This document shows positions 7,376 to 29,704 of a DNA stretch of 64,000 bases, piece by piece. The number at the start of each line of letters is the position of its first letter. The first letter of the stretch is position 1. The notes below the pieces were generated by a model. That model had not been told where the DNA came from. It made no database searches and saw only the letters and a list, made by a program, of their open reading frames with translations. A program made the position numbers and the translations under genes. The stretch lies in the NCBI GenBank assembly GCA_026395595.1, contig JAPLYL010000008.1:56417-120416 (forward strand), given 5' to 3'. The DNA comes from Candidatus Parcubacteria bacterium. Its GTDB lineage: Bacteria > Patescibacteriota > Minisyncoccia > Phycocordibacterales > CAIJYI01.

Positions 7376-8509
7376 TTAGGGTAATTCCTGTAATCGTTTC
7401 AAAGCAAGACCAATAGAAACGGAAAATTCAGGACCGGCATCAGTGAGTACCGCTTGAAGAAACGCGGGAGTTTCAATTTTGGAAAATGAATCGCCGAAAA
7501 CCACTTCCGCTTCCATCCATTTTTTCGCGTGTTCAGGTAAACCTTTGAGAAGGACACCGCCGCCGGTCAGAACCACTCTGCTTACGGTTTTGTTATTTTT
7601 GTTTTGGTATCCTAATAATACTCTATTCGCTTCCGTAAAGATATAACTGACGGTGGATTCCATTATCTCAGAAGCCTTGCGCGCCTCTTCGTCTTTTCCG
7701 AGAAGGCCGATATCTCGTTTCATTTTTTCGGCTTTCGCAATACTGATGTTGAGGGCGCGAGAAAGCGCGATGGTTATTTCCTGAGAACCGCGACTGATAA
7801 TGTGCGCATTCTTAATAACGCCTTGTTCCACGAGGGCGAGTTTGGTAATACCCGCACCCATGTCTATGAACATCATCGGGGAAAGATCTCGTCCGATGGT
7901 CGCGCGAATGGAGCTGTATACTTCAATTTCAAATGTCGTTCCTTCTGTAAGTCCGATTTTTTTCACAACATCTTCATATTTGTTCAGAACTTGATTGTGT
8001 ATAGCGACGATCATCACCTGAATTTTGTCTTTTTTAGGATCACCGGTCATTAAGGCCTCTTCTTCTGCAGTCTTCGGAATAACAATCCAATCAAGAGCAA
8101 CTTCAGTAATGGGAACCGGGATATATTTTCTCGCTTCAACGGGAATCATCTGTGCGAGCTTTTCATCATCAACGACGGGAAGTTCTATCATCGTAAGCAA
8201 AGCGGAAGAGAGGGGGAGGGATACAGATCCGATTCTTGAGGTGACGTTTGCCTCGCGGAAAAGATCTTTGATGGCTTCAACGATTTTATCGGCGGGAAGG
8301 TTTGTTGCTCGTCCGACATCAAAACCGCCATAAGGGCCAAGGGCGAGTTCGCCATATGTTTCCAACACAGCGCGTCCTTGTTCTTTTCTTACCTGAACAA
8401 CCTTAATAACCGAAGATCCGATATCCAAGCCAATAACGCTCTCATTCTTTTTGAAGAGATTTTTAACGTAGGGAATTATTTGTTGAATATCAAAATTTTG
8501 AAGTGCCAT
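7376..8509 (-). CDS. pilM: PilM, actin-like ATPase of the type IV pilus inner-membrane complex
   Basis: N-terminal IGLDIGSSVIKVV phosphate-1 motif of the actin/HSP70 fold. Length is 377 aa. First gene of the operon. Confidence 0.85.
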   Translation of the reverse strand: MALQNFDIQQIIPYVKNLFKKNESVIGLDIGSSVIKVVQVRKEQGRAVLETYGELALGPYGGFDVGRATNLPADKIVEAIKDLFREANVTSRIGSVSLPLSSALLTMIELPVVDDEKLAQMIPVEARKYIPVPITEVALDWIVIPKTAEEEALMTGDPKKDKIQVMIVAIHNQVLNKYEDVVKKIGLTEGTTFEIEVYSSIRATIGRDLSPMMFIDMGAGITKLALVEQGVIKNAHIISRGSQEITIALSRALNISIAKAEKMKRDIGLLGKDEEARKASEIMESTVSYIFTEANRVLLGYQNKNNKTVSRVVLTGGGVLLKGLPEHAKKWMEAEVVFGDSFSKIETPAFLQAVLTDAGPEFSVSIGLALKRLQELP

Positions 8510-9296
8510 GCGTATAACAATTTATGGACAGAAACTGTATTTTTATTATACCATAAAAACAATTATGCATTATAGGGAAAAGTCTCATTTATCCACAACT
8601 TCCATTTCTTGGTTGCAAAATACAGCAAAGGTATTCTATGATTTTATTCTTGATCTTTTTTTTCCAAGAAATTGCATTCTCTGCAAGAAAGACGGGGTCT
8701 TTTTTTGCGCGTCATGCAGAGGTAAAATGCCGATTGATACCACTCCGATGATCAATCATACTTTTTCTCTCTGGAGATACGACCATGAAACCGTACGGAA
8801 AGCGCTCTGGGAATTAAAATACCGCGGAAAACGCGGTTTAGCCCGAGACCTCGCGGAATCGCTCTACGACAAAATTCTTGAAACCCTCTCCGAAGAGGAA
8901 CTTTTCCAAAACCCTGCGGGAAAAGAAGAATGCTCAGACAGGTATATGGTCGTCCCCGTTCCCATTCACAAGAAGAGGAGAAAAGAACGAGGATATAATC
9001 AATCCGAACTTCTTGCCAAAGAACTTTCTTTATTAAACCACTCCCTTTTTATTCTTGAAAATAAAGTACTTCTCAAAACAAAAGCAACGCCGAGTCAGGT
9101 TTCCGTCAAAGACCGAGAAAAACGCCTGAAAAATATCAAAGGTTCTTTCACGATAAAAAATCCGGAAAAAATAATCGAGAAAAAAGTGCTCATTGTAGAT
9201 GATATCACCACCACGGGAGCCACCCTTTCTGAAGCACGACGATTATTAATAAAGTCCGGAGCAAAAAAAGTCTGGTGCGTGACGGTAGCGCATTAA
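8508..9296 (+). CDS. comFC: ComF family protein (ComFC; phosphoribosyltransferase domain with N-terminal zinc finger)
   Basis: CILCKK...CASCRG is a four-Cys zinc finger. The C-terminal PRTase motif is VLIVDDITTTGATL. It is divergent from pilM. The true start may be the internal Met at about 8565. Confidence 0.8.
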   Translation: MRITIYGQKLYFYYTIKTIMHYREKSHLSTTSISWLQNTAKVFYDFILDLFFPRNCILCKKDGVFFCASCRGKMPIDTTPMINHTFSLWRYDHETVRKALWELKYRGKRGLARDLAESLYDKILETLSEEELFQNPAGKEECSDRYMVVPVPIHKKRRKERGYNQSELLAKELSLLNHSLFILENKVLLKTKATPSQVSVKDREKRLKNIKGSFTIKNPEKIIEKKVLIVDDITTTGATLSEARRLLIKSGAKKVWCVTVAH

Positions 9297-11432: not shown

Positions 11433-11521
11433 CGGAGAGGTGGGTGAGCACGGTCGAAACCACCACACTGCTAACGTGGCAGGGGGTAAAACCCCTCGAG
11501 GGTTCGAATCCCTCCCTCTCC
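11433..11521 (+). tRNA. tRNA-Ser (anticodon GCU), class II with long variable arm
   Basis: Acceptor GGAGAGG/CCTCTCC with discriminator G. D stem GGT/ACC. Anticodon loop CTGCTAA. Variable arm GGGGGTAAAACCCC. T arm GAGGG-TTCGAAT-CCCTC. Confidence 0.85.
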
Positions 11522-11533
11522 GCAGTAAGTTTT

Positions 11534-11556
11534 TAGTATCGGAAGACCCGAGTGCC
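11534..11556. repeat. 23-bp direct repeat (copy 1) agtatcggaagacccgagtgcct, 13 bp after tRNA-Ser; putative island junction
   Basis: An exact second copy lies at 29682..29704. It contains the RACCCGAGTR core, which occurs at least 7 times in the window. It is embedded in a partial palindrome aagaccc...gggtctt. Confidence 0.7.
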
Positions 11557-11592
11557 TTGATATTCAAGGGTCTTTTGAATCACTGGAATCTC

Positions 11593-11628
11593 AAAAAGTT
11601 CGAACCTTTATGGGGTTCGAACTTTTTG
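11593..11628 (-). terminator. Terminator hairpin after the 1098-aa helicase gene
   Basis: Perfect palindrome aaaaagttcgaacc-tttatgg-ggttcgaacttttt. Confidence 0.6.
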
Positions 11629-11641
11629 TTACTTCGGACTA

Positions 11642-14600
11642 TTATTCACTGCAAATCACGTCAAGGTCAACGCCCACTGTTTCTTTAAGATAGCTATGTG
11701 CGGCCGCTAAAATCGCTGTTTGATCTGGTGTATGGTTGGTTTTTGATAATCCCGGTTGAACGATAATGATCTCAGCCCTGATTTCCTTGAATCTGCTTAT
11801 CTTTACAAATTTATTCATATCAGCTGATGAACCCAACAAGAAGCGAGTAACTCTTTCTTCGTTTGTGAGACGCTTTTCTCTGTCTAATATATGTTTGCAT
11901 AAATCCTTGAACTTCCATTTCCATTTAGCCGAACGGACCGCTTGCGAAGAAACCTCTACAACATCGCTAATACGTTCACCTGCTGTAGTTTCTGTTGTAA
12001 ATTTACAGTGAATTAAAGCTAATCTAATATGATCATCTTCCTCTTTGAAACAGACTAGATCGGCAGCCTCTCCTGCACCATCGTCATCAAATACTGTTTC
12101 AAAATTTCCAGCAATAAACTGTTGAGCGGCTCGCCATTGTATGGAATCTTCTCTTTGCGCTCCGTTCTTCCAAATAGACTCTTTGCGCAAATCAACACCC
12201 ACCCAATCCCACGCCTCAAATCTTTCTTCTGGGAAAATGAGTTCCTGGGTGTTTTGTGGCTTAATAAGTAGGTTGCCATCAAGTTCAGAAATATCAACGA
12301 ATCGAATCATTGGGGGATAGTTTGAAAAATATTCTTCAATCGGAAGTACTAAATTTCCAACTCGAATAGTAACCTGCTCTTGAGAGTTTTTTGTAACCTT
12401 AAAACCTTCATCACCACCAACAGTTAGTGACAGGTTTAACCAAACATCTTCAGGATCCGTAACTAACCTAAAATAAACTTGGCTGGTCACAATATCAGTT
12501 TTTATAAACTGAAGGTCAAACAATGAGACCGATTTTTCAATTCCTCCTTTTTTTAGAATGACTCTTTCTTCCGATTGCCTAATAATTTCAAGTGGCCATT
12601 CGATACTAAGAACCTGCTTGTCGGGTAACGCGGTTACTTCTTCGGGAATAAGCACGTTTGCAATAATATCAGCAGTATCTATGTTTCCATCTTTAATTTT
12701 TCCACCAACAGATTCACACCATTTGATAAGTTCAGGTATTGAACCTGGATCTCTGGCCCACACACGTCCTTTGTAAGAACAACCTATCGTTACAGGTTCT
12801 CCATTTTCCCAACCCGTGCCACTTAGATTGGATTTAACGGAACCGGCTCGTTCAGAAACGCTGAGCGCTGTTGCCACATCTGAACCGGTATACATTGCGT
12901 ATCGTAGATTGCGTCGGCCGTGTTTTGTCACCCCAACGTTTTGGAAGATTAATCTGTTAATTCGTCCAAGTGCGCGAAATATTATGTCTCCAGAAACGAG
13001 TTTTGTTGCACCAATAGCCCCGGCTATCTTTTCATGATTTGAAGATTTGTCGCTGGAGGAAACGAATAACAGATTGCGAGCTTCATCAAAATGAAAAACG
13101 TGTAAATCCCATATACGATCGCGAAGCTTTCGCGATCTTGTCCATCGAATCGGAGATTCAAGCCTTGTCACAAAATACAAAGTGTTTGATTCTTCATGAA
13201 TCCATACGCGATGCACATTTATACCCCTGGGTATTCCCTCAAAAAACTTTTTTGGCGTAAATGAATTTGCCTCATACATCAATGTACTAAATGTTGGACG
13301 CAACAAATGGTGGGATATTTCTATCTTTTCTTCATCTTCAGAGTTATCAAGAACTTCAGATGCATTCAAAAATGCAATGAGCTCGGAATGAGTCTTTGCC
13401 GCATCGGAACTAAATTCACTTAACAACTGATTCCAGTCAGCATCTTCACTATATAATCGCTCAAGAGCAGATGAAACATCTTGATCGGCAATGTTTGCTA
13501 CTACTGTGGCATCGCCGATTGCTTCACCAGCAGTTCGGGTAAATCTTCCCGTAAATTGAAGTAGAATTGCAAGACTTTTATGTGTATCATGAACAGCCGC
13601 AATTTTCAGTTGAGGTAAATCAAAACCTTCCCCAAGCATGTTTACACAAATAACGATACGACTCTGTCGAGATCTAATTTTTTCAATTGAAGCATCGGTT
13701 TCATCTTCCTCTGAGTGAATAAGAACGGGATTAAGGTCTGGTGCGATTCTATCATAGATAGCGTAGATAGTTCTGGCTCGACCAATACTGGCACATCTTG
13801 CCATCATAAGATGATCTTTTCCAGAAGCGAGGTCTCTTCGAAGTATTTCTACACCTTTTGTGGCAATTGCCTCATCGGCGTTTTCTTGGTCAATCTCATA
13901 TACAGGTTCAAAATTTATATTCTTGAAATACCCATCGTTTTGTGCTGAATGCAATGGATACTCATAAATAACTTTCCCATCAACAAGTTTCCCATCTCTT
14001 CGATAAGGGGTCGCTGTAAACTGCAAAACTCTGTTATCTTTAAACTTTTCTCGAAATGCACCCCACCCAACTGCTCCAACATGATGAGCTTCATCAACTA
14101 TAAGCGTCTTCACATAATCAGCAATAGGAAGAGGTGTATCACCAGAAGAATCGCTTTCCATTACGCTCATCGTCGCGATAACAACATTACATTTATTAAA
14201 AATATCTAAATCTTCTTCCGACTGAAGCCTTTTTTTGATTACTCCAACAATAGGATTTTTTGCTTCAGATGAAAGATTACCAAGGGACCGAAGTAGTCCG
14301 AGAGTAAGAAACTTTTTTGCTGTTTGGTCGCGCAACACTTTTGATGGAACAACCACGAGTAAACTTCCTGTCGAATAGGCAACGAGAGTTGCAAGCATAG
14401 CTTCTGTCTTTCCTGTGCCTGTTGGCATGACAATCGTAGCTGGTTGTTGATACAAACTCCAGTGAGCACCTATTGAATGAAGACTTCCGATTTGTGGTGG
14501 CCTTAATCCTTTTTTAGTTACAGTACCGACAAGGTCTTTTTCTTCGGATTGAAAATTGAATTTTCCATACCAGCTTTCAGTTATGTCTTTCGAAACTTTT

Positions 14601-14938
14601 TCTAAACCACCCTCGTCGACATCATATTTTAGAGCATTTAATTTTCGGTGTGCTATCCACTTCAACGCGTTTCCGAGTTGACCAAAAAGAACTCCATCAA
14701 CATCTCGAGGTAGTTCAAGTTTCTTCTTTTTTGTAATGAGTATTTTTTGACCGTCATCGAGAACATATAGAGTTTCTCTAACTCTTGGAGACGTAAAAAA
14801 TTCCTCAGTCCTGGATATGACTTTATTACCGCCTAAATCTAATACATGAGAAATAATGCCGATAGAATGCTTAATAGGCCCGAATTCTAATGGCGGGAGG
14901 AATAGCATATTCGGATTTTCTGGGTTTGAAGGGCTCAT
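11642..14938 (-). CDS. Large SF2 (ResIII/DEAH-type) helicase fused to an about 500-aa C-terminal domain of unknown function; defense-island-type protein
   Basis: Motif I MPTGTGKT, motif II DEAHH, motif III TATP and motif VI QFTGRFTR are in the N-terminal half. The C-terminal half has no recognisable family apart from a possible degenerate PD-(D/E)xK-like segment (ADLVCF...LALIHCKF). Confidence 0.7.
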   Translation of the reverse strand: MSPSNPENPNMLFLPPLEFGPIKHSIGIISHVLDLGGNKVISRTEEFFTSPRVRETLYVLDDGQKILITKKKKLELPRDVDGVLFGQLGNALKWIAHRKLNALKYDVDEGGLEKVSKDITESWYGKFNFQSEEKDLVGTVTKKGLRPPQIGSLHSIGAHWSLYQQPATIVMPTGTGKTEAMLATLVAYSTGSLLVVVPSKVLRDQTAKKFLTLGLLRSLGNLSSEAKNPIVGVIKKRLQSEEDLDIFNKCNVVIATMSVMESDSSGDTPLPIADYVKTLIVDEAHHVGAVGWGAFREKFKDNRVLQFTATPYRRDGKLVDGKVIYEYPLHSAQNDGYFKNINFEPVYEIDQENADEAIATKGVEILRRDLASGKDHLMMARCASIGRARTIYAIYDRIAPDLNPVLIHSEEDETDASIEKIRSRQSRIVICVNMLGEGFDLPQLKIAAVHDTHKSLAILLQFTGRFTRTAGEAIGDATVVANIADQDVSSALERLYSEDADWNQLLSEFSSDAAKTHSELIAFLNASEVLDNSEDEEKIEISHHLLRPTFSTLMYEANSFTPKKFFEGIPRGINVHRVWIHEESNTLYFVTRLESPIRWTRSRKLRDRIWDLHVFHFDEARNLLFVSSSDKSSNHEKIAGAIGATKLVSGDIIFRALGRINRLIFQNVGVTKHGRRNLRYAMYTGSDVATALSVSERAGSVKSNLSGTGWENGEPVTIGCSYKGRVWARDPGSIPELIKWCESVGGKIKDGNIDTADIIANVLIPEEVTALPDKQVLSIEWPLEIIRQSEERVILKKGGIEKSVSLFDLQFIKTDIVTSQVYFRLVTDPEDVWLNLSLTVGGDEGFKVTKNSQEQVTIRVGNLVLPIEEYFSNYPPMIRFVDISELDGNLLIKPQNTQELIFPEERFEAWDWVGVDLRKESIWKNGAQREDSIQWRAAQQFIAGNFETVFDDDGAGEAADLVCFKEEDDHIRLALIHCKFTTETTAGERISDVVEVSSQAVRSAKWKWKFKDLCKHILDREKRLTNEERVTRFLLGSSADMNKFVKISRFKEIRAEIIIVQPGLSKTNHTPDQTAILAAAHSYLKETVGVDLDVICSE

Positions 14939-15002
14939 TTTTGGGTGACGTGAGATAAGATTTAGATTTCATCACCACCACATTTTATCACTTTTGCAAG
15001 AT

Positions 15003-16328
15003 CTACGCTATTGTCACCACCCCCTTCGTAACTTTAATTTTTGACTTAAAACACCCCATCAATTCTCTCTTCTCTTCGTTCGTCCCTTCTCGGAGAATAT
15101 ATTGGGCGTACGTTTTTGAATCTATTTCCTTGTAGGTTTCTTTTGGGTTTGTCATTCCGAGCACCTTTCTTTGAAATTTGTTCATTCGTTTTAATTCCTC
15201 ATCAAATTTATGTTTGATGCCGAGATTATTGAAGTCTATTTGATCCAGTACTTTTAAAAGTTGTTCAACTAATTCTTCTTCTCGAAGGTACTGACATTTG
15301 CAGTGCCTGTCTTTTGACCTTCCGCATCCATAGTAAATGTATTTTGCGGTCGTTCCATCTTTGAGTACTTTATATTTCTCTTCGGCTGAAATTCCTGATC
15401 CACACAATCCACAGACCATAAGTTTTGTAAAAGCGAATTCTTTGCTTTGTCGATGAATATCATCTCGTTTCAACTGTTCTTGAACTTTATCAAAAAGTTC
15501 TTTTTCAATGATCGGTTCATGTTTTCCGGTATACCAGTTTCCGGACTTTTTCGGGTATTCAAAAACTCCGTAATAAAACGGATTCGATAATGCCCGGTAA
15601 ATATTTCCAAGAGCGACATTATGATTTCCTACCGATTTAAAATTGAGTTCAAATTTTAACCATTGATGAATTTTTCGCCCCGACCATTTTTCATAAGCGA
15701 CTTTTTCATACATTTTTTTAACAATAGGAGCCCTGTCTGGATCTATGGTAACTTGGCATTTTCTATCAATTCTTTTTTCGTTCAAATATCCAAGCGGAGC
15801 GATTCCCGGCCACAGCCCCATTTCAACCCTCGTCCGAAGCCCGCGCTTTACGTTTATTCCGCGATTGTCATTTTCAAGCTTTGCCTGAGATCCAAGAATC
15901 ATCAACAAGAATTTTTCGTTTGGATTATTCCGGAAGCTTTGGCTGAATGTTCGAATCTCTACCAGTTTTCCTGCATCCATCAAGTCTACGATTTTTCCGA
16001 GATCTCCCGCATTACGACTGATACGATCCGGCGCCCATGTCAGAATCCCAGTAAACTTCCCGGCACGTAATTCTTCAACAATCTCATTAAATACAGGCCG
16101 TTGTCCAGTTTCCTTCGCCGAGTGCGATTCGCGCTTCATTGTTACGACCTCTAACCCTTCCCGATCCGCCAGTTGGAGCATTTCCTTAATCTGGCTGTCT
16201 ATTGAAAGCACCTGTCTTTCCTCTGATTCGGTACTCTTTCTCGCATAAAGGCAGTATTTTACCGCCGTTGGAACCTCTATTTTAGCCCTGGTTCCCGCTG
16301 GCATTTGCATTGTTTCCATATGTCTCAT
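15003..16328 (-). CDS. Large serine recombinase (resolvase catalytic domain + recombinase domain + zinc ribbon)
   Basis: YARKSTESEERQ...SIDSQ catalytic Ser region. LTWAPDRISRN. GLWPGIAPLGY recombinase domain. CGLCGSG...YYGCG zinc ribbon. Confidence 0.9.
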   Translation of the reverse strand: MRHMETMQMPAGTRAKIEVPTAVKYCLYARKSTESEERQVLSIDSQIKEMLQLADREGLEVVTMKRESHSAKETGQRPVFNEIVEELRAGKFTGILTWAPDRISRNAGDLGKIVDLMDAGKLVEIRTFSQSFRNNPNEKFLLMILGSQAKLENDNRGINVKRGLRTRVEMGLWPGIAPLGYLNEKRIDRKCQVTIDPDRAPIVKKMYEKVAYEKWSGRKIHQWLKFELNFKSVGNHNVALGNIYRALSNPFYYGVFEYPKKSGNWYTGKHEPIIEKELFDKVQEQLKRDDIHRQSKEFAFTKLMVCGLCGSGISAEEKYKVLKDGTTAKYIYYGCGRSKDRHCKCQYLREEELVEQLLKVLDQIDFNNLGIKHKFDEELKRMNKFQRKVLGMTNPKETYKEIDSKTYAQYILREGTNEEKRELMGCFKSKIKVTKGVVTIA

Positions 16329-16447: not shown

Positions 16448-16633
16448 ATGACTACATCAAACACGGGAGATATCATTACGCTTAAGGAGGCATGCGAACT
16501 GCTGAACTGTCATCCGAATACCCTGCGAAAATGGGATAACTCCGGTTTCTTGAAAGCGATCCGTTTTGGTGCACGGCGCGACCGGCGGTATCATCGTGCC
16601 GATATTGAGAAATTAATTTCCCAAAAAACATAA
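16448..16633 (+). CDS. Small HTH DNA-binding protein (excisionase/MerR-like HTH_17); candidate RDF or controller
   Basis: ITLKEACELLNCHPNTLRKWDNSG helix-turn-helix. Length is 61 aa. It is the first gene of the MTase operon and lies next to the recombinase. Confidence 0.6.
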   Translation: MTTSNTGDIITLKEACELLNCHPNTLRKWDNSGFLKAIRFGARRDRRYHRADIEKLISQKT

Positions 16634-16635
16634 TT

Positions 16636-17751
16636 ATGAAAGATAAAGTTTCAAACGCCAGCCTTCATGGGGCAAAAAAAGCAAAGAAAGATGAGTTTTA
16701 TACTCAGCTTGTTGATATTGAAAAAGAATTGAAACATTATAAAGATCAGTTTCGTGGCAAGGTGGTATATTGCAACTGTGATGATCCATTTGAAAGTAAT
16801 TTTTTTAAGTATTTTGCCGCTAATTTCAATGCTCTCGGGTTGAAAAAACTTATCGCCACGAGTTACAAGCCATCCCCCATAGCCAATACACAACTGGGAC
16901 TATTTGGCGTAGATAAAGTACTTGCTTCACCAAAAGGACGCCCCAAAGTAACCGCTAACAAATTTATTATCAATGAGGTTAGTGACATAGACGGCGACGG
17001 TGCATTTGATTTACGTGACGTTGCCGAGCAACTTAAGGCTAATAAAAACAATGAGTGGGCCCCATTAGAAGATGAAGGAGATTTTAGAAGTAAAGAAAGC
17101 ATAGAACTGCTAAAGCAGGCTGATATTGTCGTAACTAACCCGCCATTTTCGTTATTTCGGGAATATATTGCACAGATTGTAGAATACGACAAAAAGTTTT
17201 TAATTATCGGCAATATAAATGCGGTTACTTATCAGGAATGTTTTAGACTTGTTCAAAATGATAGAATGTGGCTCGGGGCAAGTATTCATAGCGGTGATCG
17301 TGAATTTCGCGTTCCGAATGATTACCCGCTTGAAGCCGCGGGTTGTAGAGTGGACGAGAGCGGTAATAAATATATCCGCGTCAAAGGTGTCCGTTGGTTT
17401 ACGAATTTGGATTATAAAGAACGTCATGAAGATTTAGTATTGTACAAAAAATACACACCAGAAGAGTATCCTTTATACGACAATTATAGTGCAATTAATG
17501 TTGATAAGACGGCCGATATTCCAATGAGTTACGTTGGGGAGATGGGTGTTCCGATTACATTTCTTGATAAATACAATCCTGATCAATTTAAAATTGTAGG
17601 TGCTCTAATATCTGGCCCACTTGGGCATGAATTGGGAGCAACTAAAACGCAACAGATTAGACCGAACGGAAAGACAACATTGGAATACGGACCAATTATC
17701 AACAAAAAAGGATATTATGGAAGAATTGTTATTAAAAACAAGAAAATATGA
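16636..17751 (+). CDS. N6-adenine DNA methyltransferase (NPPF motif; EcoRI-methylase-family-like)
   Basis: Motif IV VVTNPPF and an upstream CNCDDPFESNFF motif I-like region. The stop overlaps the next gene's start (ATGA). Confidence 0.65.
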   Translation: MKDKVSNASLHGAKKAKKDEFYTQLVDIEKELKHYKDQFRGKVVYCNCDDPFESNFFKYFAANFNALGLKKLIATSYKPSPIANTQLGLFGVDKVLASPKGRPKVTANKFIINEVSDIDGDGAFDLRDVAEQLKANKNNEWAPLEDEGDFRSKESIELLKQADIVVTNPPFSLFREYIAQIVEYDKKFLIIGNINAVTYQECFRLVQNDRMWLGASIHSGDREFRVPNDYPLEAAGCRVDESGNKYIRVKGVRWFTNLDYKERHEDLVLYKKYTPEEYPLYDNYSAINVDKTADIPMSYVGEMGVPITFLDKYNPDQFKIVGALISGPLGHELGATKTQQIRPNGKTTLEYGPIINKKGYYGRIVIKNKKI

Positions 17752-18854
17752 AAATTGAACTAAACAGAATTAAAATACGCGAAGTAATAGAAGAATACAA
17801 AGACAGCGCCGAGGAGGGTGTTGTGGCTTACGGTGGCAAACTTGATGTTCGTCCAAAATATCAGCGTGAGTTCGTCTACAAAGACAAGCAGCGAGATGCG
17901 GTTCTTGATACTATCAAAAAAGGATTCCCACTCAACGTCTTGTACTGGATGGTGCGTGAAGATGGCGGTTATGAACTACTCGATGGACAACAGCGAACGA
18001 TTAGCATTGGTCAGTATATCAGCGGTGACTTTTCGCTAGATGACCGTTATTTTCACAATCTCACAAAAGAAGAACAAGAGCAGATATTGAATTACGAATT
18101 GATGATTTATTTCTGCGAAGGTACAGATAAAGAAAGACTGGGCTGGTTCAAAACTATCAATATCGCGGGTGAAAAATTAACAGATCAGGAATTACGCAAC
18201 GCCGTTTACACTGGCCCGTGGCTTTCTGACGCAAAACTAAAATTCAGTAAATCAAATTGCGCCGGATACCTTTTGGCAAATGACGGTGGCACATTACTCA
18301 CCGGTTCGCCGATCCGGCAAGAATATCTGGAAACCGCACTTTCTTGGATCAATGATGACGAAGTGGCGGGCTATATGGCAAAACACCAGCACGACAAAAA
18401 CGCAAATGAATTGTGGGAGTATTTCCAAAATGTCATTGCTTGGGTACGAAAAACATTCACAAACTATCGCAAAGAAATGGCTCATGTAAACTGGGGCGAA
18501 TTGTACAACGAATTTAAAGATAAGAAGTTGGATTCAAAAAAGTTGGAAGCTGAAATCTTTAAATTGATGCAAGACGAGGACGTAACGAAAAAATCCGGTA
18601 TCTATCCTTATGTTCTCACAAAGCAAGAAAAACATCTTTCCATACGTGCATTCAACGATAAAATGAAACGCGAAGCATACGAGCGACAGGAAGGAATTTG
18701 TCCGCATTGCAAAGGAGAGAATAAGAAAAAGAAATGGGAAATTGAAGAAATGGAAGCCGATCACGTCACCCCATGGCACGAAGGTGGTAAAACGACCGCG
18801 GAAAATTGTCAGATGTTGTGTAAAGAAGATAATCGACGGAAATCGGGGAAATAA
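17748..18854 (+). CDS. DUF262 (ParB/Srx-like DGQQR NTPase) fused to C-terminal HNH endonuclease; GmrSD/BrxU-like
   Basis: DGQQRT motif in the N-terminal domain. C-terminal CPHCKG...ADHVTPWHEGG...NCQMLCKEDNRRK is the HNH signature. Translationally coupled to the MTase. Confidence 0.75.
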   Translation: MKIELNRIKIREVIEEYKDSAEEGVVAYGGKLDVRPKYQREFVYKDKQRDAVLDTIKKGFPLNVLYWMVREDGGYELLDGQQRTISIGQYISGDFSLDDRYFHNLTKEEQEQILNYELMIYFCEGTDKERLGWFKTINIAGEKLTDQELRNAVYTGPWLSDAKLKFSKSNCAGYLLANDGGTLLTGSPIRQEYLETALSWINDDEVAGYMAKHQHDKNANELWEYFQNVIAWVRKTFTNYRKEMAHVNWGELYNEFKDKKLDSKKLEAEIFKLMQDEDVTKKSGIYPYVLTKQEKHLSIRAFNDKMKREAYERQEGICPHCKGENKKKKWEIEEMEADHVTPWHEGGKTTAENCQMLCKEDNRRKSGK

Positions 18855-18857
18855 GCC

Positions 18858-21059
18858 ATGATTAATAAAATTCTAAAAATCGAAGGACTAGGAAAGTTTA
18901 AGAAGTTTTCCAATACAGGAAACGACGATTTGAAATTCTTGAAATACACTGTTATTTTCGGTTACAACACATACGGAAAAAGTACTCTGACAACCATTTT
19001 TAGATCTCTTAAAGATTCCGATCAAAAACGCCTGAATGGAAAGAAAAGTTTTGGATTCATTGGAAATCTTGCCATCGATATATTGGATGAGACTGGTCAA
19101 CACCTAACACTTGCAAACGGCAAATGGAGCAATCCTAATATAGCTATTTTTGATAATTATTTCACCCATAGCTCTGTTTTTGTTGGAGATGAAATAGGTC
19201 ACAAACACAAGTCATCTTTGTATGGAGTTTTTGTCGGGGAGGATATCAGACAACAAATTTCTAAGTTAAAAGAACTGCGGGGTGAGCAAGATGCCTTAGA
19301 AAAAGAGCGTGACAAAATTAAGTCTGAATACACAAAAGGGTATCTTGGAACTTTCGATGCCTTTCTTGGAAAGGAAGCGGTTGATGGAGTTGAAGAGAAA
19401 AAAGAAACTAAAAAGAAAGAAATTCAAAGGATAAAGAACTCCGTTTCGCTTAAACAACTTATTGCGAGCTCTCCATTTGCAAGTAAGTTCGAGAAATTTT
19501 CGGCATCAATGCAAAAAACACTTGATACCTCAGCTGAAACGAATATCGAAAATCATGTAAAATCTCATTGGAAAGATGTTACAGCCTCCAAAAATTTTCT
19601 GGCCGCAGGCGTTGATTTATTGAAAGACGGTACGAACACTTGTGTTTTCTGTGGGCAGGGCCTCACGCCCGTGGTAAATCTTATCAAAGACTTCAAAAAT
19701 GTTTTTGGGGCTACCTACAAAGAAACACAGCAGGAAATAGAAAAAATTGGCGAGGCGTTCTTGCGATTTGATGTAGAAGCTGAAATGGCAAAATTCACTC
19801 CGCTCGGGGTTATCTGCGAAGAAATATACAACAAGGATGTTTTGTTAAAAAATAAAAATATCCTCGACGAAGATGTTCGCAAAAAACTTAAGAATTTAAA
19901 TTACGCAATTGATGTTACTTCAGCTATAAGCCCCTTCAAATCTTTTGTTGCGGAAATAGTAAAATTACATCCAACTTTTGAGATGCTTAAGACTCAGGAG
20001 TTTTCTACTATAAAACAAACCGCATTGGAAAACGAACTGAAACAATTAGAACTCGCACAATATCGCCACGGGGAGGAAGGTGTCGCTCTTGCTCAAAAAT
20101 TTACCAAGGCCATTATAGCCGTTGAAACCAAAAAAACAGAAATCGATACTCTACGAAAAAAGATTGACGAAGCAACCAAAGATACTATTGGAAAAAACCA
20201 GAAGCAAGTTAATACAATACTTACGGATGTATTAAAGGCGGATTTCACAATCCAAAAAATGAGCGGTCAATCAAATTTAACCAGAGCTAATGCTCACTCT
20301 ATAGATTATGAATTCGTTATAAACGAAAATATCGTTCCCATATCCAATAAACACTTACAGACTGATGAGGAGCCATTAGACAAACCATATTTCGGAAATA
20401 CACTTAGCGATAGTGATAGAAGATTGCTCGCACTCGCGTTCTTCATTGCCAGCTTGCAAACGGATAGTAATCTGAAAGACAAGATAATTGTTTTAGATGA
20501 TCCATTTTCTAGCTTTGATTCAAATAGAAAAGATTATTTGGCGAGAATGATTATTGATATCCAGAACGAGAAAAAGGAACGACCGGGACAAATAATCGTT
20601 ATGACACACGACGATGGGTTTCTTGGTCGACTCCAATCAAAATTACCGTCATCTGACACGAAAGTACTTAAGATTAAAAACTCCGTTGCCGATGGCTCAG
20701 TTTTAGACAAATGTGATGTTGATGAAATTATCGAGGAAGAATATTTCAAAAACATAAAGCACATCAAAGAGGCAGCAGATAAAACAAGGGATGTAGATAG
20801 TGCCCTGAAACGGGTTCGTCCATGTCTTGAGCGAGTTTTACGACATAAGTACTATTTTTGTCTTGATAAAGAAACACTTGAGAGCGGAAGCATAACCTCT
20901 TATCTTGAAAAAATTGATAAAAAGTGCGTGATAAAAGATGAAATACTGAAAAGTGGTTGGCACGAACACATGCACGATGAACACGAGATTATGAAATTAT
21001 TGGAGCCGGAAAAAGTTCAAAAATTGAAGGATTTTCTTGTTCTCCTTGAAAAAATATAG
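18858..21059 (+). CDS. Rad50/SMC-like ABC ATPase with coiled-coil insert carrying a CxxC zinc-hook motif; PrrC/RloC-like or Septu PtuA-like candidate
   Basis: Walker A GYNTYGKST near the N-terminus. About 450-aa coiled-coil region containing CVFCGQGLT (compare Rad50 hook CPVCGR). Walker B IIVLDDPFSSFD, H-loop VMTHD, and an about 170-aa C-terminal tail (RPCLERVLRH...WHEHMHDEH). Confidence 0.65.
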   Translation: MINKILKIEGLGKFKKFSNTGNDDLKFLKYTVIFGYNTYGKSTLTTIFRSLKDSDQKRLNGKKSFGFIGNLAIDILDETGQHLTLANGKWSNPNIAIFDNYFTHSSVFVGDEIGHKHKSSLYGVFVGEDIRQQISKLKELRGEQDALEKERDKIKSEYTKGYLGTFDAFLGKEAVDGVEEKKETKKKEIQRIKNSVSLKQLIASSPFASKFEKFSASMQKTLDTSAETNIENHVKSHWKDVTASKNFLAAGVDLLKDGTNTCVFCGQGLTPVVNLIKDFKNVFGATYKETQQEIEKIGEAFLRFDVEAEMAKFTPLGVICEEIYNKDVLLKNKNILDEDVRKKLKNLNYAIDVTSAISPFKSFVAEIVKLHPTFEMLKTQEFSTIKQTALENELKQLELAQYRHGEEGVALAQKFTKAIIAVETKKTEIDTLRKKIDEATKDTIGKNQKQVNTILTDVLKADFTIQKMSGQSNLTRANAHSIDYEFVINENIVPISNKHLQTDEEPLDKPYFGNTLSDSDRRLLALAFFIASLQTDSNLKDKIIVLDDPFSSFDSNRKDYLARMIIDIQNEKKERPGQIIVMTHDDGFLGRLQSKLPSSDTKVLKIKNSVADGSVLDKCDVDEIIEEEYFKNIKHIKEAADKTRDVDSALKRVRPCLERVLRHKYYFCLDKETLESGSITSYLEKIDKKCVIKDEILKSGWHEHMHDEHEIMKLLEPEKVQKLKDFLVLLEKI

Positions 21060-21175: not shown

Positions 21176-24040
21176 TTAGGGACACGCCAAACATGCTTTT
21201 GCAAGATCTTCAAGCTCTTTGAAGATTGTTTCCGCTTCTACTCGCTCAGGAGTTACCCCTTCAGGTAAGGAGTTTATAAATATTGGAGAATCCAACAACT
21301 GATCCTCAAGCATTACTGCAATTCCAACATCGGTTCTTTTCCTAATAAGTCTTCCGAAGCCCTGCTTAAAAAGCATTACGGCGAGTGGCTGATAGTAGTT
21401 TTTGAAACCATCTAACCTCTTGTTGTCCAATTCCTTACAACGAGCCTGTATAATGGGAAGGTTTGGGTTTCTATAGGGCGTTTTGTAGATAAAAAGAGAT
21501 CTTAGAGAATTACCTGGGACATCAACCCCCTGCCATAAAGTTTCTGTACCGATCAACACTGAATTTGTGTCACTGGAAAAATCTCTGATTACAGAAGTAC
21601 AAGATTGCCCCCTCGATTGTTTCAGTAGCCAAAGATTCTTTTTTGATAATGGACGAACCAGTTTTTCATAAATCTTGTTTACCTGGTCAAAACTCGTACA
21701 GAGAATAAGTGCCCCTCCGTTACTTGCGATAATCGCTTTTTCTAAAAAATCAACACTTTCGTTAAAATGACGGTCGCCCTTCATTGTCTTGAACGAAATG
21801 CCTTTCGGAAGGAAAAATTTGGCTTGTTTATCGTAATCAAATGAAGAGGAAAAGATGTACCCTTTTACGTTTCCTTTTTCTATAAGTCCCAACCCGCAGC
21901 GACTCGAAAAAAAGTTAAATTTTTTATCAATTGTTAGTGTCGCGGATGTCAGTACCACAGAGGAATAATTTTGATAGACTTTTTCGTTCAATTCTTTAGC
22001 GACAGACAGTAAAGATCCTTTTATCTCAACGCCCGAGTTGGTTCTTTCTAAGTATTTAATATATGCGGGGCTGGTGTTTATAAAAACAATGACTGTATCA
22101 ATTATTTGTTTTACCGTACGTATACGGATAGTTAATATTTTTTGTTGTTGCTCGTTCTTTGTTTCTTTTGCAAAAACTTCCATTATACTTTGGATACTTG
22201 CGAGACGGTCTCGAATCTGAATCAAAATACCCTGAAGAGCAGTTAATCCATCCTTGTTCATTTCTGAAAAAAGACTGTACTGAGAGTAACCTTTGTCGTT
22301 CGGTTTTGAAACAAGTTTTGGCGTAATCTCGTCAAACAAAGAGGTAATATCAAGATTAAGATTGGATTCTACCTCAAAAAAAGAATCCGACAAAGACGAC
22401 AACCTATTCTCATTTTTTTGTTTTGCGATATTTTCTATTATGTTAGCAACGCCTTTCCTTTTTCCTTTTCCAAACAAATGTTGCTCAAGTAAAATAAAAC
22501 GATCTTTAGAGAGAATTTGTTCCCATGCGGAAGTGGCATCTTCTTCAAGGTGATGAGCTTCGTCAAATACTATGTATTTTGCTTCTCCAGGAAATACGGT
22601 GTGTGAAAAACTAACGGCATGTTTTTGTGCGGAATTTTCTTCATCAACAAAATCGTTTTCTTTTTCTTCGGCTGGAACAATCCCAGACAACATAATCGCG
22701 TGATTCACAACCACAAGGTCTGCGTCTCTTGCGCGAAGTTTTGCTTTTGCGAGAAAACACTTTCCCTCACCAAACAAATCGCAAACTCCTTGTGTGCAAA
22801 GCTCGTCAGTATTGCATACATCGTGTTCGATCTTCTTTGGCATTCGTTCTGTAAGCCAATAAGGTAGTTCTCCCCAGTCTCCACGTGTAGTCTCTAAAAC
22901 CCAAGAAGAAAGAAGAATTCCTGATAGCGGGCGAGTAAACCTAATTCCATCTCTTTTGAATTCATATAAAGAACGCTGTGTACCTTCTGCTATTATTTCC
23001 TCTATGAATTCACTAAATTTTGATAAACAAACATAATTCTTTTTTCCCTTCAAGACGGCAACGTGTAATTCTTTTCCCATTAGTTCACATAGGTGGGGAA
23101 TTTCTTTAAATGCGAGCTGGTCTTGCAGAGCTTTTGTATGGGTTGAAATTATAACTGGTATATTATTTTCAAGCGCAAAAAGGACGGAAGGGGCTAAATA
23201 TGCTTTTGATTTTCCCGTTCCTGTACCGGCTTCAATAACCGCGTGTTTTTTATTATTAAAGGAGAATGCAATTGCCGCAGCCATTTTCTTTTGTTCTGGA
23301 CGAGCCTCCGAATAGTTGCCGGATTTATCAATCGCTGGATCAAAATATTTTTCTACATCCTCTATTTTTATTTCCTTGTTGGCCTTAAACCCAAGAGTGT
23401 TTTGCCCCACGGGTTTTCTATATGACTGAAACGGTTCGACTAAATGTGAAATATCTATGATATCCTCTGACCTAGCAGGTAGAAAATCTTTCCACCACCA
23501 ATTTACTCGTTCAGACAAGTAACGAAGCGCTGATCTGTGCTTTAACGGTTTTCTTACATATAGTGCTTGTAGGTTTTTTATAATCTCAAATTCACTTTCG
23601 CAATCCTGAAGAGCGCGATGCCTGACCGATTCTAATTTGAAATATTCTGAAAGTGCTGTAGTCGAATGCCCAAATGGATTTGTCGGCAAGATAAAAAATG
23701 CGAATTCAAGAGAATCTTGCTTGTCATCGAATTTAAGACCCTCTCGTTCCAGTATCGGAAAATCGAAAGAAAATCCATTATGAGAAACTACGGTATATCC
23801 TTTAATAAATTCTCTTGTTTGTTTAATTACTTCTTCAATTGTTGGTGCGTTGCAAACATCTTTTTCTGTAATTCCAGTAATTCGTTTTATTGTTTCTGGG
23901 ATTTCATCAGAATAACGCACAAAAGTAGACCATCTTTTTAAAACAGTATTTCCTGAAACCAAAATAGCACCGACTTCAAGGACAGAGGAAAATTCACGAT
24001 CTAAACCCGTTGTTTCAATATCCAGTATGACGTATTTCAT
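21176..24040 (-). CDS. dinG: DinG-family (Rad3-like) helicase with N-terminal DEDD 3'-5' exonuclease domain
   Basis: N-terminal ILDIETTGLD exonuclease motif I. Helicase motif I AGTGTGKS and motif II FDEAHH. Length is 954 aa. Confidence 0.8.
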   Translation of the reverse strand: MKYVILDIETTGLDREFSSVLEVGAILVSGNTVLKRWSTFVRYSDEIPETIKRITGITEKDVCNAPTIEEVIKQTREFIKGYTVVSHNGFSFDFPILEREGLKFDDKQDSLEFAFFILPTNPFGHSTTALSEYFKLESVRHRALQDCESEFEIIKNLQALYVRKPLKHRSALRYLSERVNWWWKDFLPARSEDIIDISHLVEPFQSYRKPVGQNTLGFKANKEIKIEDVEKYFDPAIDKSGNYSEARPEQKKMAAAIAFSFNNKKHAVIEAGTGTGKSKAYLAPSVLFALENNIPVIISTHTKALQDQLAFKEIPHLCELMGKELHVAVLKGKKNYVCLSKFSEFIEEIIAEGTQRSLYEFKRDGIRFTRPLSGILLSSWVLETTRGDWGELPYWLTERMPKKIEHDVCNTDELCTQGVCDLFGEGKCFLAKAKLRARDADLVVVNHAIMLSGIVPAEEKENDFVDEENSAQKHAVSFSHTVFPGEAKYIVFDEAHHLEEDATSAWEQILSKDRFILLEQHLFGKGKRKGVANIIENIAKQKNENRLSSLSDSFFEVESNLNLDITSLFDEITPKLVSKPNDKGYSQYSLFSEMNKDGLTALQGILIQIRDRLASIQSIMEVFAKETKNEQQQKILTIRIRTVKQIIDTVIVFINTSPAYIKYLERTNSGVEIKGSLLSVAKELNEKVYQNYSSVVLTSATLTIDKKFNFFSSRCGLGLIEKGNVKGYIFSSSFDYDKQAKFFLPKGISFKTMKGDRHFNESVDFLEKAIIASNGGALILCTSFDQVNKIYEKLVRPLSKKNLWLLKQSRGQSCTSVIRDFSSDTNSVLIGTETLWQGVDVPGNSLRSLFIYKTPYRNPNLPIIQARCKELDNKRLDGFKNYYQPLAVMLFKQGFGRLIRKRTDVGIAVMLEDQLLDSPIFINSLPEGVTPERVEAETIFKELEDLAKACLACP

Positions 24041-25173: not shown

Positions 25174-25540
25174 GTACCGTATAAATATTTAACTTGGTAA
25201 TCGGAGGAACGAACTCGCTATCGGGCGTTTTCTGATTCTTTGTTTGGTAGTCCGGATGGCATCTCTCGAGTTGGAATTTCACGGCTTGCATATTGTTCTG
25301 CTGGATATTTTGGATAAGATGCGTATGAGCAAGATCATTCACGAAGCTTTTTCCAAGGTTGATAGCATTATCCGCCTTAAGAGCAAATGGCCGTTCCTCT
25401 TTCCATGTGTAGAAAGTTTCTCGACTAATACCGGCTCGTTTGCAGGAATACCATATATTTCCCGAATCGCGGAGAAATTCAAGTACTTTTTCTTGCATTC
25501 TATGAGTCCTCTCTTTCACGTCTGATGATTTTTTCGCCAT
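25145..25540 (-). CDS. Phage terminase-small-subunit-like HTH protein
   Basis: SCKRAGISRETFYTWKEE resembles TerS/insertion-element HTH. It is adjacent to the ParB-MTase as in phage packaging modules. The true start may be the internal Met (MQEKV...) abutting the MTase stop. Confidence 0.5.
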   Translation of the reverse strand: MAKKSSDVKERTHRMQEKVLEFLRDSGNIWYSCKRAGISRETFYTWKEERPFALKADNAINLGKSFVNDLAHTHLIQNIQQNNMQAVKFQLERCHPDYQTKNQKTPDSEFVPPITKLNIYTVPMKKTDEQI

Positions 25541-26288
25541 GTCCGGTAAGTTTTTTCCAGCGTTCCACTATCGTCGCGCAATATTCAGGTTCGATTTCGA
25601 CCATAACGCAACGTCTCTTCGTCTGCTCGCACGCAATAAGCGTTGAGCCACTACCGCCGAAGGGATCGTATACGCAATCGTTCACACTGGTGCTGTTAAG
25701 AATGATTTTCCTCAAAATCCCGATCGGTTTCATCGTCGGATGAAGTTTGCTTCGGGACGGTTTCGGAGCGAAGATGACTGATTTGTCTTTTCCTCTTTCG
25801 AATTTATGCGTTCCTTTCCAACCGTAAAGGATGAGTTCGTGCTGGGGAAGGTAATCGAGCCGTCCGATGATTGCTCGGTCTTTTACCCAAATAATCAGCT
25901 GGGATACTTTCACGCCAAGGTCTACGAACGCTTGCCTGAGGGAGAAAATCATCTTGTCACAATTGAAGACGTAAATGCTATTCTTTTTTGAGAGGTGCGG
26001 AAGAATATTTTTCAGCCATCCTTTCGTGAAATCGGCATACTCCTCGTCGCTCATAAGCCCATCGTTTTCAATATCTTTGTCGACAGAAATTTCTTGCATT
26101 CCTCGCTTGCTCGCAACGTAATCAATCGCATACGGCGGATCTGTCAGAATCAAATCGATTGTACCTTTCAGAATCTCGCGGAGAGGAACCGTCTTTGCCT
26201 CTCCGCAAACGAGAATGTGATCGCCGAGAGTGATAATGTTGCCTTTCTTAATCGAGTTGCTTCGCTTTGTGTCCGGTGAATTTTTCAT
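25500..26288 (-). CDS. DNA methyltransferase (N6/N4 beta-class, DPPY motif)
   Basis: ILTDPPY motif IV precedes C-terminal FDPFGGSGSTLIACE motif I, which is the beta-class order. Length is 262 aa. Confidence 0.85.
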   Translation of the reverse strand: MKNSPDTKRSNSIKKGNIITLGDHILVCGEAKTVPLREILKGTIDLILTDPPYAIDYVASKRGMQEISVDKDIENDGLMSDEEYADFTKGWLKNILPHLSKKNSIYVFNCDKMIFSLRQAFVDLGVKVSQLIIWVKDRAIIGRLDYLPQHELILYGWKGTHKFERGKDKSVIFAPKPSRSKLHPTMKPIGILRKIILNSTSVNDCVYDPFGGSGSTLIACEQTKRRCVMVEIEPEYCATIVERWKKLTGHGEKIIRREREDS

Positions 26289-29543: not shown

Positions 29544-29574
29544 CGTCTCTTTTGTCTCATTTTCAAAAAAATGA

Positions 29575-29704
29575 GTATAGTGACCCGAGTGCCTCGACAT
29601 CACAGCCAAAAGTGCGCTAAAATACCCTTACTGGGCTTAGACTCGCTGGTACTTAACCCGAGTGGCCCGCCATAAGAAAGAAGTATCGGAAGACCCGAGT
29701 GCCT
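29575..29704. repeat. Cluster of three RACCCGAGTR motif copies including 51-bp cassette repeat (copy 1) and 23-bp direct repeat (copy 2)
   Basis: gtgacccgagtgcc at about 29581. aataccctta...gtacttaacccgagtggcccgcc at 29621..29671. agtatcggaagacccgagtgcct at 29682..29704, identical to 11534..11556. Confidence 0.7.

Follow-up and report, generated by a model that had tools for sequence, protein, structure and literature searches.

A helicase-nuclease fusion occupying the variable cargo slot of a tRNA-Ser-associated island in a Parcubacteria genome, a probable single-gene defence

We analysed a 64,000-nucleotide (nt) stretch of DNA from a Candidatus Parcubacteria bacterium (GenBank assembly GCA_026395595.1, contig JAPLYL010000008.1, positions 56,417–120,416; hereafter the window, whose own numbering is used below) with respect to one gene, at 11642–14938 on the minus strand, whose product joins a superfamily 2 (SF2) helicase motor to a long C-terminal half. 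This gene sits in an island bounded by direct repeats, in a slot between the left attachment site and the integrase gene that holds unrelated genes in sister elements. Our preferred reading, to which we give a probability of roughly 0.6, is that it encodes a stand-alone ATP-driven DNA translocase or helicase fused to its own nuclease, carried as interchangeable island cargo and most likely acting as a single-gene defence against phage or other foreign DNA. An earlier reading made from the sequence alone (the original prediction) had proposed either a stand-alone helicase effector or the cargo helicase of the island; the results below support that interpretation and are compatible with both alternatives, the two not being exclusive.

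The open reading frame (ORF) begins with ATG and specifies 1098 residues; the original prediction had given no strand for it. Every motif quoted for it by the original prediction is present in the translation, namely MPTGTGKT (residues 171–178), DEAHH (282–286), TATP (308–311) and QFTGRFTR (461–468) in the motor, and ADLVCF (959–964) and RLALIHCKF (972–980) near the C-terminus. A protein record 100% identical to it (P0001), from a metagenome-assembled genome, bears the NCBI name 'DEAD/DEAH box helicase family protein [Candidatus Parcubacteria bacterium]'. With the full protein as query, Pfam returned ResIII (144–313, E = 1e-22), DEAD and Helicase_C (403–468) and nothing else, the PADLOC, NCBIfam and PHROGs matches were sub-threshold or generic to the helicase core with nothing specific, and RadD and XPB were the only PDB chains matched by sequence. 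A scan for promoters and terminators found sites no more numerous than in shuffled sequence. The gene and its parts are as follows.

11642–14938, minus strand: helicase-nuclease gene, complete with its stop codon (ORF list and translation)
14510–14938, minus strand: N-terminal region, residues 1–143, with a beta-rich domain at about 10–97 and a long helix at 98–123 (AlphaFold secondary structure, confidence score about 86–92)
13904–14509, minus strand: RecA-like lobe 1, residues 144–345 (Walker A GTGKT 174–178, DEAH 282–285, TAT 308–310; Pfam ResIII)
13439–13903, minus strand: RecA-like lobe 2, residues 346–500 (motif VI QxxGRxxR 461–468; Pfam Helicase_C)
12143–13294, minus strand: beta-rich middle module, residues 549–932, the larger part with an RdgC-like (CENP-L/TBP-like) fold (C-terminal model and Foldseek; the tools do not give exact domain borders)
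11645–12142, minus strand: predicted PD-(D/E)xK-type nuclease domain, residues 933–1098 (invariant residues and a helix-strand-strand-strand-helix topology in the models)

Conservation was read from an alignment of 64 relatives with identities down to 31%, to which all statements of invariance refer. All helicase motifs are invariant in it, including Q461, G464, R465 and R468. In a full-length AlphaFold2 model with a predicted local distance difference test score (pLDDT) of 85.7, two RecA lobes span residues ~144–500 and are followed by a linker. The motif set is thus as complete as the original prediction had it, but the motor ends near residue 500 and not at 560, so that the flanks without any family assignment measure ~143 residues on the N-terminal side and ~600 on the C-terminal side, instead of the ~170 and ~500 proposed. 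Foldseek searches of the PDB with the full model found helicase cores only (RadD, Mfd, the type ISP enzyme LlaBIII, HsdR and RecQ), at query-normalised template modelling (TM) scores of 0.27 or less. No Pfam, NCBIfam or PADLOC model matches residues 1–143. No other part of the protein varies as much: identity to divergent relatives is 18% here as opposed to 48–50% for the motor, 38% for the nuclease domain and 27–34% for the middle module, and in some relatives of ~996–1020 residues the alignment begins only near query residue 117.

For the C-terminal half, the original prediction had suggested structure prediction and a fold search. A model of residues 540–1098, computed from an alignment of the window fragment with full-length homologues, is confident (pLDDT 91.1, predicted TM-score 0.86) and comprises an RdgC-like fold followed by a PD-(D/E)xK-type domain. 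Against BFVD, a set of predicted viral structures, the top matches are phage RdgC-type proteins (probability ~1.0, E-values from 9e-5 to 4e-3) aligned over ~290–370 columns and named 'exonuclease' or 'recombination-associated protein RdgC'; against the PDB, the module matches CENP-N and CENP-L with probabilities of 0.98 and 0.96, respectively. CENP-L/Iml3 has earlier been described as RdgC/TBP-like, so the two fold searches agree. The RdgC fold applies to residues ~549–900 only, at modest TM-scores. On this modelled likeness, the middle module is presumed to bind DNA or to act as a clamp.

Ten residues of the C-terminal domain are invariant (D952, D953, E957, D960, H977, K979, Q999, R1020, Q1061 and P1062), and D952, D953, E957, D960, H977-x-K979 and Q999 are candidate active-site residues. 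In the modelled nuclease core D960 opens strand 2 and H977-C-K979 closes strand 3, giving residues 933–1098 a predicted PD-(D/E)xK layout in which His replaces the usual Asp or Glu. The original prediction had seen in ADLVCF...RLALIHCKF a possible degenerate strand pair of this kind, and that hint gains weight from the placing of the invariant D960, H977 and K979 on the modelled core. Weak fold matches of the domain include the FokI cleavage domain (probability 0.63–0.87) and, in BFVD, the C-terminal domain of HamA (0.44). A profile of the C-terminal family found no match among all PDB sequences at E ≤ 10, and Pfam searches of 37 C-terminal halves at E ≤ 1 returned noise only. From the invariant helicase and nuclease residues we infer both translocase and nuclease activity.

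The protein resembles a helicase-nuclease effector and fits none of the named families compared with it. The closest in overall plan is Hna, the single-protein helicase-nuclease defence of S. meliloti (SMa2245), in which K729 is catalytic, as judged from the K729A result (PMC13381803). Hna acts as an ATP-regulated 3'-5' exonuclease on single-stranded DNA and brings about abortive infection. Both are single polypeptides with an N-terminal SF2 ATPase, a C-terminal PD-(D/E)xK nuclease and no partner gene, both are broadly but patchily distributed and often plasmid-borne, and both display a motif of the form [P/A]D ... (E/H)-C-K ... Q-x-x-R-S-x-x-W. Hna is, however, shorter (845 residues; the sequence was taken from pSymA) and has a DinG/XPD-type motor (Helicase_C_2, PF13307 in all listed relatives) in place of ResIII/Helicase_C, and it lacks the extra N-terminal beta domain and the RdgC-like middle module of ~380 residues. 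Direct comparison gave a non-significant BLASTP match (E = 0.7), in which a short segment pairs AD...IHCKF...SQAVRSAKW with PD...LFECKS...EQMNRSAAW of Hna and sets K979 upon K729. Identity with Hna was rejected on that E-value, on an hhalign match of 20% probability confined to RecA lobe 1, on the absence of any match in the C-terminal half and on the difference in motor type.

The type III restriction subunit Res and the type ISP enzymes (EcoP15I Res and LlaBIII, respectively) likewise combine a ResIII-type double-stranded (ds) DNA translocase motor and a PD-(D/E)xK domain in one chain. The window protein differs from these enzymes in that it lacks a methylase domain and a partner of the Mod or methylase kind, its neighbours being the recombinase and the tRNA, and in that its middle and N-terminal domains are unrelated to theirs; in the type ISP enzymes the nuclease is N-terminal. 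No type III Res model of PADLOC or NCBIfam was matched, the matches there being sub-threshold and generic to helicases, and with no conserved methylase neighbour in 82 loci the assignment as a type III Res subunit was rejected. Hachiman, a helicase-nuclease defence that senses DNA integrity (PMC12278908), pairs an SF2 helicase with a PD-(D/E)xK nuclease, and the weak HamA fold match is a further likeness, but it consists of two proteins, a DUF1837 nuclease and a helicase of another clade; Pfam found no DUF1837 and PADLOC no HamA or HamB match. Type III Res, Hachiman and DISARM had been offered as examples by the original prediction, and the window protein belongs to none of them. DdmDE, in which the helicase-nuclease DdmD adjoins a pAgo-like DdmE gene, was also set aside, with no conserved partner gene, no PADLOC match and PDB sequence matches to RadD and XPB only, the DdmD content of these libraries being unconfirmed.

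Free RdgC is a ring-shaped dimer, and its phage homologues are routinely annotated 'exonuclease, recombination-associated'. The middle module has the same fold according to Foldseek, but without sequence similarity and as an internal domain rather than a free-standing protein of ~300 residues. Membership of the RdgC sequence family (PF04381) is not supported: no Pfam match was obtained in 37 members at E ≤ 1, and hhalign gave a probability of 0.1% against the E. coli RdgC family, whose profile is narrow (members at least 85% identical). RadD (E. coli YejH) provides the closest solved motor in both sequence and fold, but is a chromosomal repair protein of ~586 residues without a nuclease. An equivalog of RadD was rejected at 44 bits against an NCBIfam cut-off of 720, with a family member in just 8 of the 5426 E. 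coli genomes and the gene lying inside an island.

The island itself is delimited by these features.

11434–11523, plus strand: tRNA-Ser(GCU) (ARAGORN)
11536–11557, plus strand: left 22-nt direct repeat, attL-like core, an exact copy of GTATCGGAAGACCCGAGTGCCT 13 nt past the tRNA
11558–11627, plus strand: conserved left arm of the element, from the repeat to the cargo slot (blastn)
15003–16328, minus strand: large serine recombinase, 441 residues (Pfam Resolvase, Recombinase and Zn_ribbon_recom)
16448–16633, plus strand: 61-residue ORF of HTH_17/MerR type, candidate excisionase or directionality factor (called, with its Pfam match, at 8306–8491 of the identical Logan contig L091 and converted to window coordinates)
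29683–29704, plus strand: right 22-nt direct repeat, attR-like core, intergenic, the second exact copy of GTATCGGAAGACCCGAGTGCCT

The repeats enclose 18.1 kb. For the 16-nt core of the 22-mer, 0.01 chance matches are expected, and the helicase-nuclease stop codon lies 85 nt from the left copy, in keeping with the claim that this is the first gene after an attachment-site repeat. The left arm shows 72–83% nucleotide identity to many of the 23 loci described below, in segments that span the 22-mer and the arm and in some cases the tRNA as well. G+C content is 37–42% (mostly 37–41%) at 11–24 kb as opposed to 42–48% in most of the left flank. The recombinase gene lies directly upstream of the helicase-nuclease gene, in the same orientation and 64 nt away, which confirms the adjacency originally described. 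Its NCBIfam matches are to CcrB/XisF, below cut-off, and its orthologues (62–94% amino acid identity) stand by the same attachment region in eight metagenomic loci, a ninth holding a 25-residue fragment; this recombinase is the island's integrase. The 61-residue HTH_17 ORF is divergent from the recombinase gene and directly ahead of a methylase gene. With a recombinase, tRNA-adjacent repeats and variable content between conserved ends, the helicase-nuclease gene has the setting of serine-recombinase island cargo, and the sequence suggests that the island was mobilised by this enzyme and integrated just downstream of tRNA-Ser in the Parcubacteria genome.

A 14-nt exact repeat, CTTTTGCAAGATCT, occurs at 14991 and 21196 and would bound a 6.2-kb island with the helicase outside. 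We set this boundary aside because a 14-mer is by our estimate near chance in 17 kb, whereas the 22-mer has arms in common with sister elements. A partial third copy of the 22-nt repeat, GACCCGAGTGCCTCGACAT, is found at 29582–29600, 100 nt inward of the right end. Its likeness is to the left junction, where the repeat meets the beginning of the left arm, and it may be left over from a tandem or an earlier integration. The only other contig with an identical protein, L091 (SRR20698640_227915), ends 148 nt past the gene, at the tRNA and attachment region, which fits an assembly break at the repeat or a polymorphic island boundary.

A metagenome scan for the 22-mer returned 23 stretches, none of which carries the helicase. 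In seven of them (L092, L093, L097, L100, L106, L107 and L114) both the attachment region (window 11434/11496–11627) and the recombinase gene (62–94% amino acid identity) are present, and the slot between them holds 0.7–5.3 kb of unrelated genes, with possibly ~8 kb in L112. Its occupants include a SIR2_2 protein with a 456-residue partner, a weak TIR-like protein, a C5 methylase with a metallo-beta-lactamase (MBL)-fold protein that matches the PADLOC candidate PDC-M48B (E = 5e-80), and several unknowns. The inner right-end sequence at 29545–29663 also recurs at the far end of the sister element L093. In this family of tRNA-Ser elements, the stretch from attL to the integrase gene is therefore a variable cargo slot, which the helicase-nuclease gene fills here and other cargo fills in at least seven related elements. 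Since sister elements with the same recombinase lack the helicase, the gene is dispensable for the mobility of the element. This variable slot is the strongest contextual argument for a role in defence or competition.

Relatives are numerous and their architecture is fixed. A word-index search retrieved more than 4800, the best 120 almost all of 1090–1110 residues and at least 57% identical. The C-terminal half alone finds 1393 clusters at 50% identity (E ≤ 1e-3); most of the best 150 have ~1000–1120 residues and are matched in their C-terminal half, and the shorter entries resemble fragments. Scanning one genome per species confirmed at least 447 relatives in Saccharibacteria, Paceibacterota, Alpha-, Beta- and Gammaproteobacteria, Bacteroidota, Bacillota, Planctomycetota, Acidobacteriota, Nitrospirota and others. 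Identity is uncoupled from taxonomy (82% to a protein of Saccharibacteria, 62% to Rhodospirillaceae and 57% to Pedobacter). Relatives are found in 108 plasmid records, 60 of them conjugative, and a 996-residue member in 8 of 5426 complete E. coli genomes; a near-full-length copy in phage-labelled genomes was limited to one, deposited as two records. The NCBI pipeline names all relatives just 'DEAD/DEAH box helicase (family protein)', and a literature search for the family, its E. coli and Klebsiella accessions or RdgC-helicase defence proteins found nothing.

Neighbours of the relatives were surveyed by calling ORFs within 10 kb on either side in 82 loci and clustering them all. The search for co-occurring genes, which the original prediction had advised, found no conserved partner: the commonest family, serine recombinase, occurs in 9 of the 82 loci. 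With no neighbour family in more than nine loci, the helicase-nuclease gene is a stand-alone unit. PADLOC counts over the neighbour sets were confounded by redundant GajB models. Pfam on 146 immediate and 144 next-but-one neighbours gave a scatter of mobile-element and defence families, among them integrases, helix-turn-helix regulators, UvrD and ResIII helicases, N6/Eco57I/MmeI methylases, restriction endonucleases, reverse transcriptases, AbiJ, Mrr and TrwC relaxase. Individual relatives stand beside Mrr, a YoeB toxin-antitoxin pair and an integrase; beside a tyrosine integrase; or convergent with a serine recombinase in a prophage-like setting with terminase and ParB-methylase genes farther out. 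A Bacillus thuringiensis plasmid copy is near an integrase and an AAA ATPase/helicase pair (candidate Gabija-like), and the Klebsiella relative WP_074091248.1 is solitary on an IncFIB/HI1B conjugative plasmid with IS5 on its flanks. One E. coli homologue is located as follows.

NZ_CP026202.1, 113400–116390: WP_001549206.1 (L117, strain ECONIH5), 0.7 kb from retron Ec78 (reverse transcriptase, PtuA, PtuB)

Here insertion sequence and integrase fragments around the homologue and the retron interrupt a fimbrial operon. In five or six alphaproteobacterial loci (L058, L063, L068, L071, L078 and L082) a conserved block consists of an AddA-like gene (UvrD and PDDEXK, ~1133 residues), an AddB-like gene (PDDEXK, ~887 residues) and then the helicase-nuclease gene, followed in some by genes for a DUF6361 protein, a 1078-residue ResIII helicase and a PLD-like protein. 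A DUF6361, helicase and PLD trio is the composition of Azaca (10.1101/2025.07.10.664194).

Several other genes of the window have links to defence or mobility. One group lies in the same island.

16636–21059, plus strand: defence cargo block of an EcoRI-like methylase, a GmrSD_N/HNH restriction enzyme and an AAA_13 ATPase (Pfam and PADLOC)

The EcoRI-like adenine methylase gene (16636–17751) overlaps that of the GmrSD_N and HNH protein, which is matched by the PADLOC type II REase_II model (E = 2e-135), and the 733-residue AAA_13 ATPase that comes next matches the PADLOC candidate PDC-S06; together these look like a three-gene defence block. Also within the repeats is a 954-residue fusion of a DEDDh exonuclease (RNase_T) and a DinG helicase (21176–24040, minus strand), matched by the PADLOC model for type IV-A CRISPR-associated DinG (E = 2e-99). 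Two tandem N6_N4 methylase genes (262 and 424 residues; 25500–27522, minus strand) have a 53-nt segment in common at 74% identity (26200 and 27005) and adjoin the gene of an HTH_Tnp_1_2 protein. A ComF-like phosphoribosyltransferase gene (8508–9296, plus strand, with 7376–8509 on the minus strand beside it) gave PADLOC matches to PsyrT/ShosT at E ~1e-15; it adjoins PilM and other pilus genes, which makes a role in competence likelier than one as a defence toxin.

Taken together, the invariant helicase and nuclease residues, the lack of a conserved neighbour and the recurrent defence and mobile contexts support the stand-alone helicase effector of the original prediction. Neither of the two findings named there as refuting that proposal was obtained: the C-terminal half does not model as any known accessory domain of housekeeping helicases, and the relatives are not core chromosomal genes. 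Other observations weigh against our reading. We infer the defence role from position and anatomy, that is, by guilt by association. The RdgC-like assignment holds at the level of fold only, with TM-scores of 0.27–0.44 of the target, and the narrow E. coli RdgC profile gave essentially no signal. In the candidate nuclease, His stands in the place of the canonical Asp or Glu, and no solved nuclease matches it significantly, the C-terminal model having no PDB Foldseek match at all at E ≤ 1e-3. No full-length PADLOC 2.0.0 model was matched and no NCBIfam cut-off was reached, so the family is not a recognised system. Co-orientation with the recombinase gene across a gap of 64–80 nt, seen in two genomes of the candidate phyla radiation (CPR), would also suit a part in the element's own life cycle.

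If the protein acts in defence, its parts would divide the work as follows. The variable N-terminal beta domain may serve as a sensor or specificity part. The SF2 motor, of the ResIII/RadD/HsdR type and thus of the kind found in dsDNA translocases (restriction enzymes, Mfd and RadD), would load on foreign DNA or on replication or recombination intermediates, and the RdgC-like module might hold or encircle the DNA or else mediate dimerisation. The C-terminal PD-(D/E)xK-type nuclease, with its unusual D...HxK signature, would then cut, cleavage being coupled to ATP-dependent movement. Self DNA might be spared through an auto-inhibition that phage DNA structures or proteins release, for which Hna and Hachiman offer a precedent.

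We put forward more tentatively, and at rather less than even odds, that the protein is the founding member of an unrecognised and widespread single-protein immune system, in which an RdgC-like encircling module couples an SF2 translocase to an HxK nuclease under a hypervariable N-terminal sensor, and which travels as plug-in cargo of integrase-adjacent hotspots, including those in the reduced genomes of CPR bacteria.

Alternatively, the gene might serve the mobile element, either by processing DNA ends or intermediates in excision, replication or transfer or by attacking rivals at the tRNA-Ser site. It lies directly downstream of and co-oriented with the recombinase gene both here and in a Saccharibacteria locus (L009; helicase 82% and recombinase 68% identical), CPR-type recombinases are near it in four CPR genomes, it is frequent on conjugative plasmids, and RdgC, which its middle module resembles, is linked to recombination. 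Yet the sister elements, which have the recombinase and the attachment region in common with the island, lack the gene and carry other cargo, so that mobility does not require it, a related recombinase is within 10 kb in only 9 of the 82 loci, and the orientation varies from tandem (here and in L009) to convergent (L004 and L011). We consider service to the element unlikely on balance. A special case of the defence reading would be a modification-dependent, type IV-like restriction enzyme whose N-terminal domain or middle module reads the modification. A single gene without a methylase partner and a highly variable N-terminal domain would suit it, as would weak PADLOC matches to helicase-containing mREase_IV models (E ~1e-3, motor region only). 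These matches, however, span generic helicase motifs, and neither Pfam nor Foldseek found a PUA, SRA, EVE or other reader fold, which makes this special case distinctly unlikely.

A restriction subunit of a type III-like or type ISP-like system, working with an island methyltransferase that marks self while the translocase-nuclease cuts unmethylated DNA following ATP-driven movement, would match the order of a ResIII-type motor and a C-terminal PD-(D/E)xK domain as in type III Res, the presence of LlaBIII and HsdR among the fold neighbours and the three methylases of the island (the EcoRI-like enzyme and the two of N6_N4 type). The EcoRI-like methylase is, however, already paired with a restriction enzyme whose gene overlaps that of the methylase, and a methylase is not a conserved neighbour (N6_Mtase in 3 of 146 immediate positions; N6_N4_Mtase in 3 and N6_Mtase in 2 of 144 next-but-one positions). 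There is no methylase cluster among the neighbours in the 82 loci, many relatives are solitary, as on the IS5-flanked Klebsiella plasmid, and no Res-specific NCBIfam or PADLOC model matched, leaving such a partnership very unlikely. A housekeeping repair helicase of the RadD/XPB kind that adjoins the island by chance would explain why the motor matches RadD and XPB best in sequence and in fold and why the gene follows an AddA/AddB-like pair in some Alphaproteobacteria, but is highly improbable given its low RadD score, its place inside the direct repeats and absence from sister elements, its rarity in E. coli, its many plasmid copies and its unconserved neighbourhood.

We found no description of a protein that combines a motor of restriction type with an RdgC-like module and an HxK nuclease, and the C-terminal 600 residues lie outside every solved structure, Pfam family and curated model; the E. 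coli and Klebsiella homologues WP_001549206.1 and WP_074091248.1 provide a directly testable entry point. The work also documents a hotspot of defence cargo, between attachment site and integrase gene, in elements of Parcubacteria and Saccharibacteria, whose immune repertoire is poorly known; the eight sister elements named above could be mined at this slot for new systems. If the defence role is confirmed, the one-gene helicase-nuclease defences would gain a large family, with no fewer than 1393 clusters at 50% identity, in many phyla, on plasmids and in some E. coli and Klebsiella.

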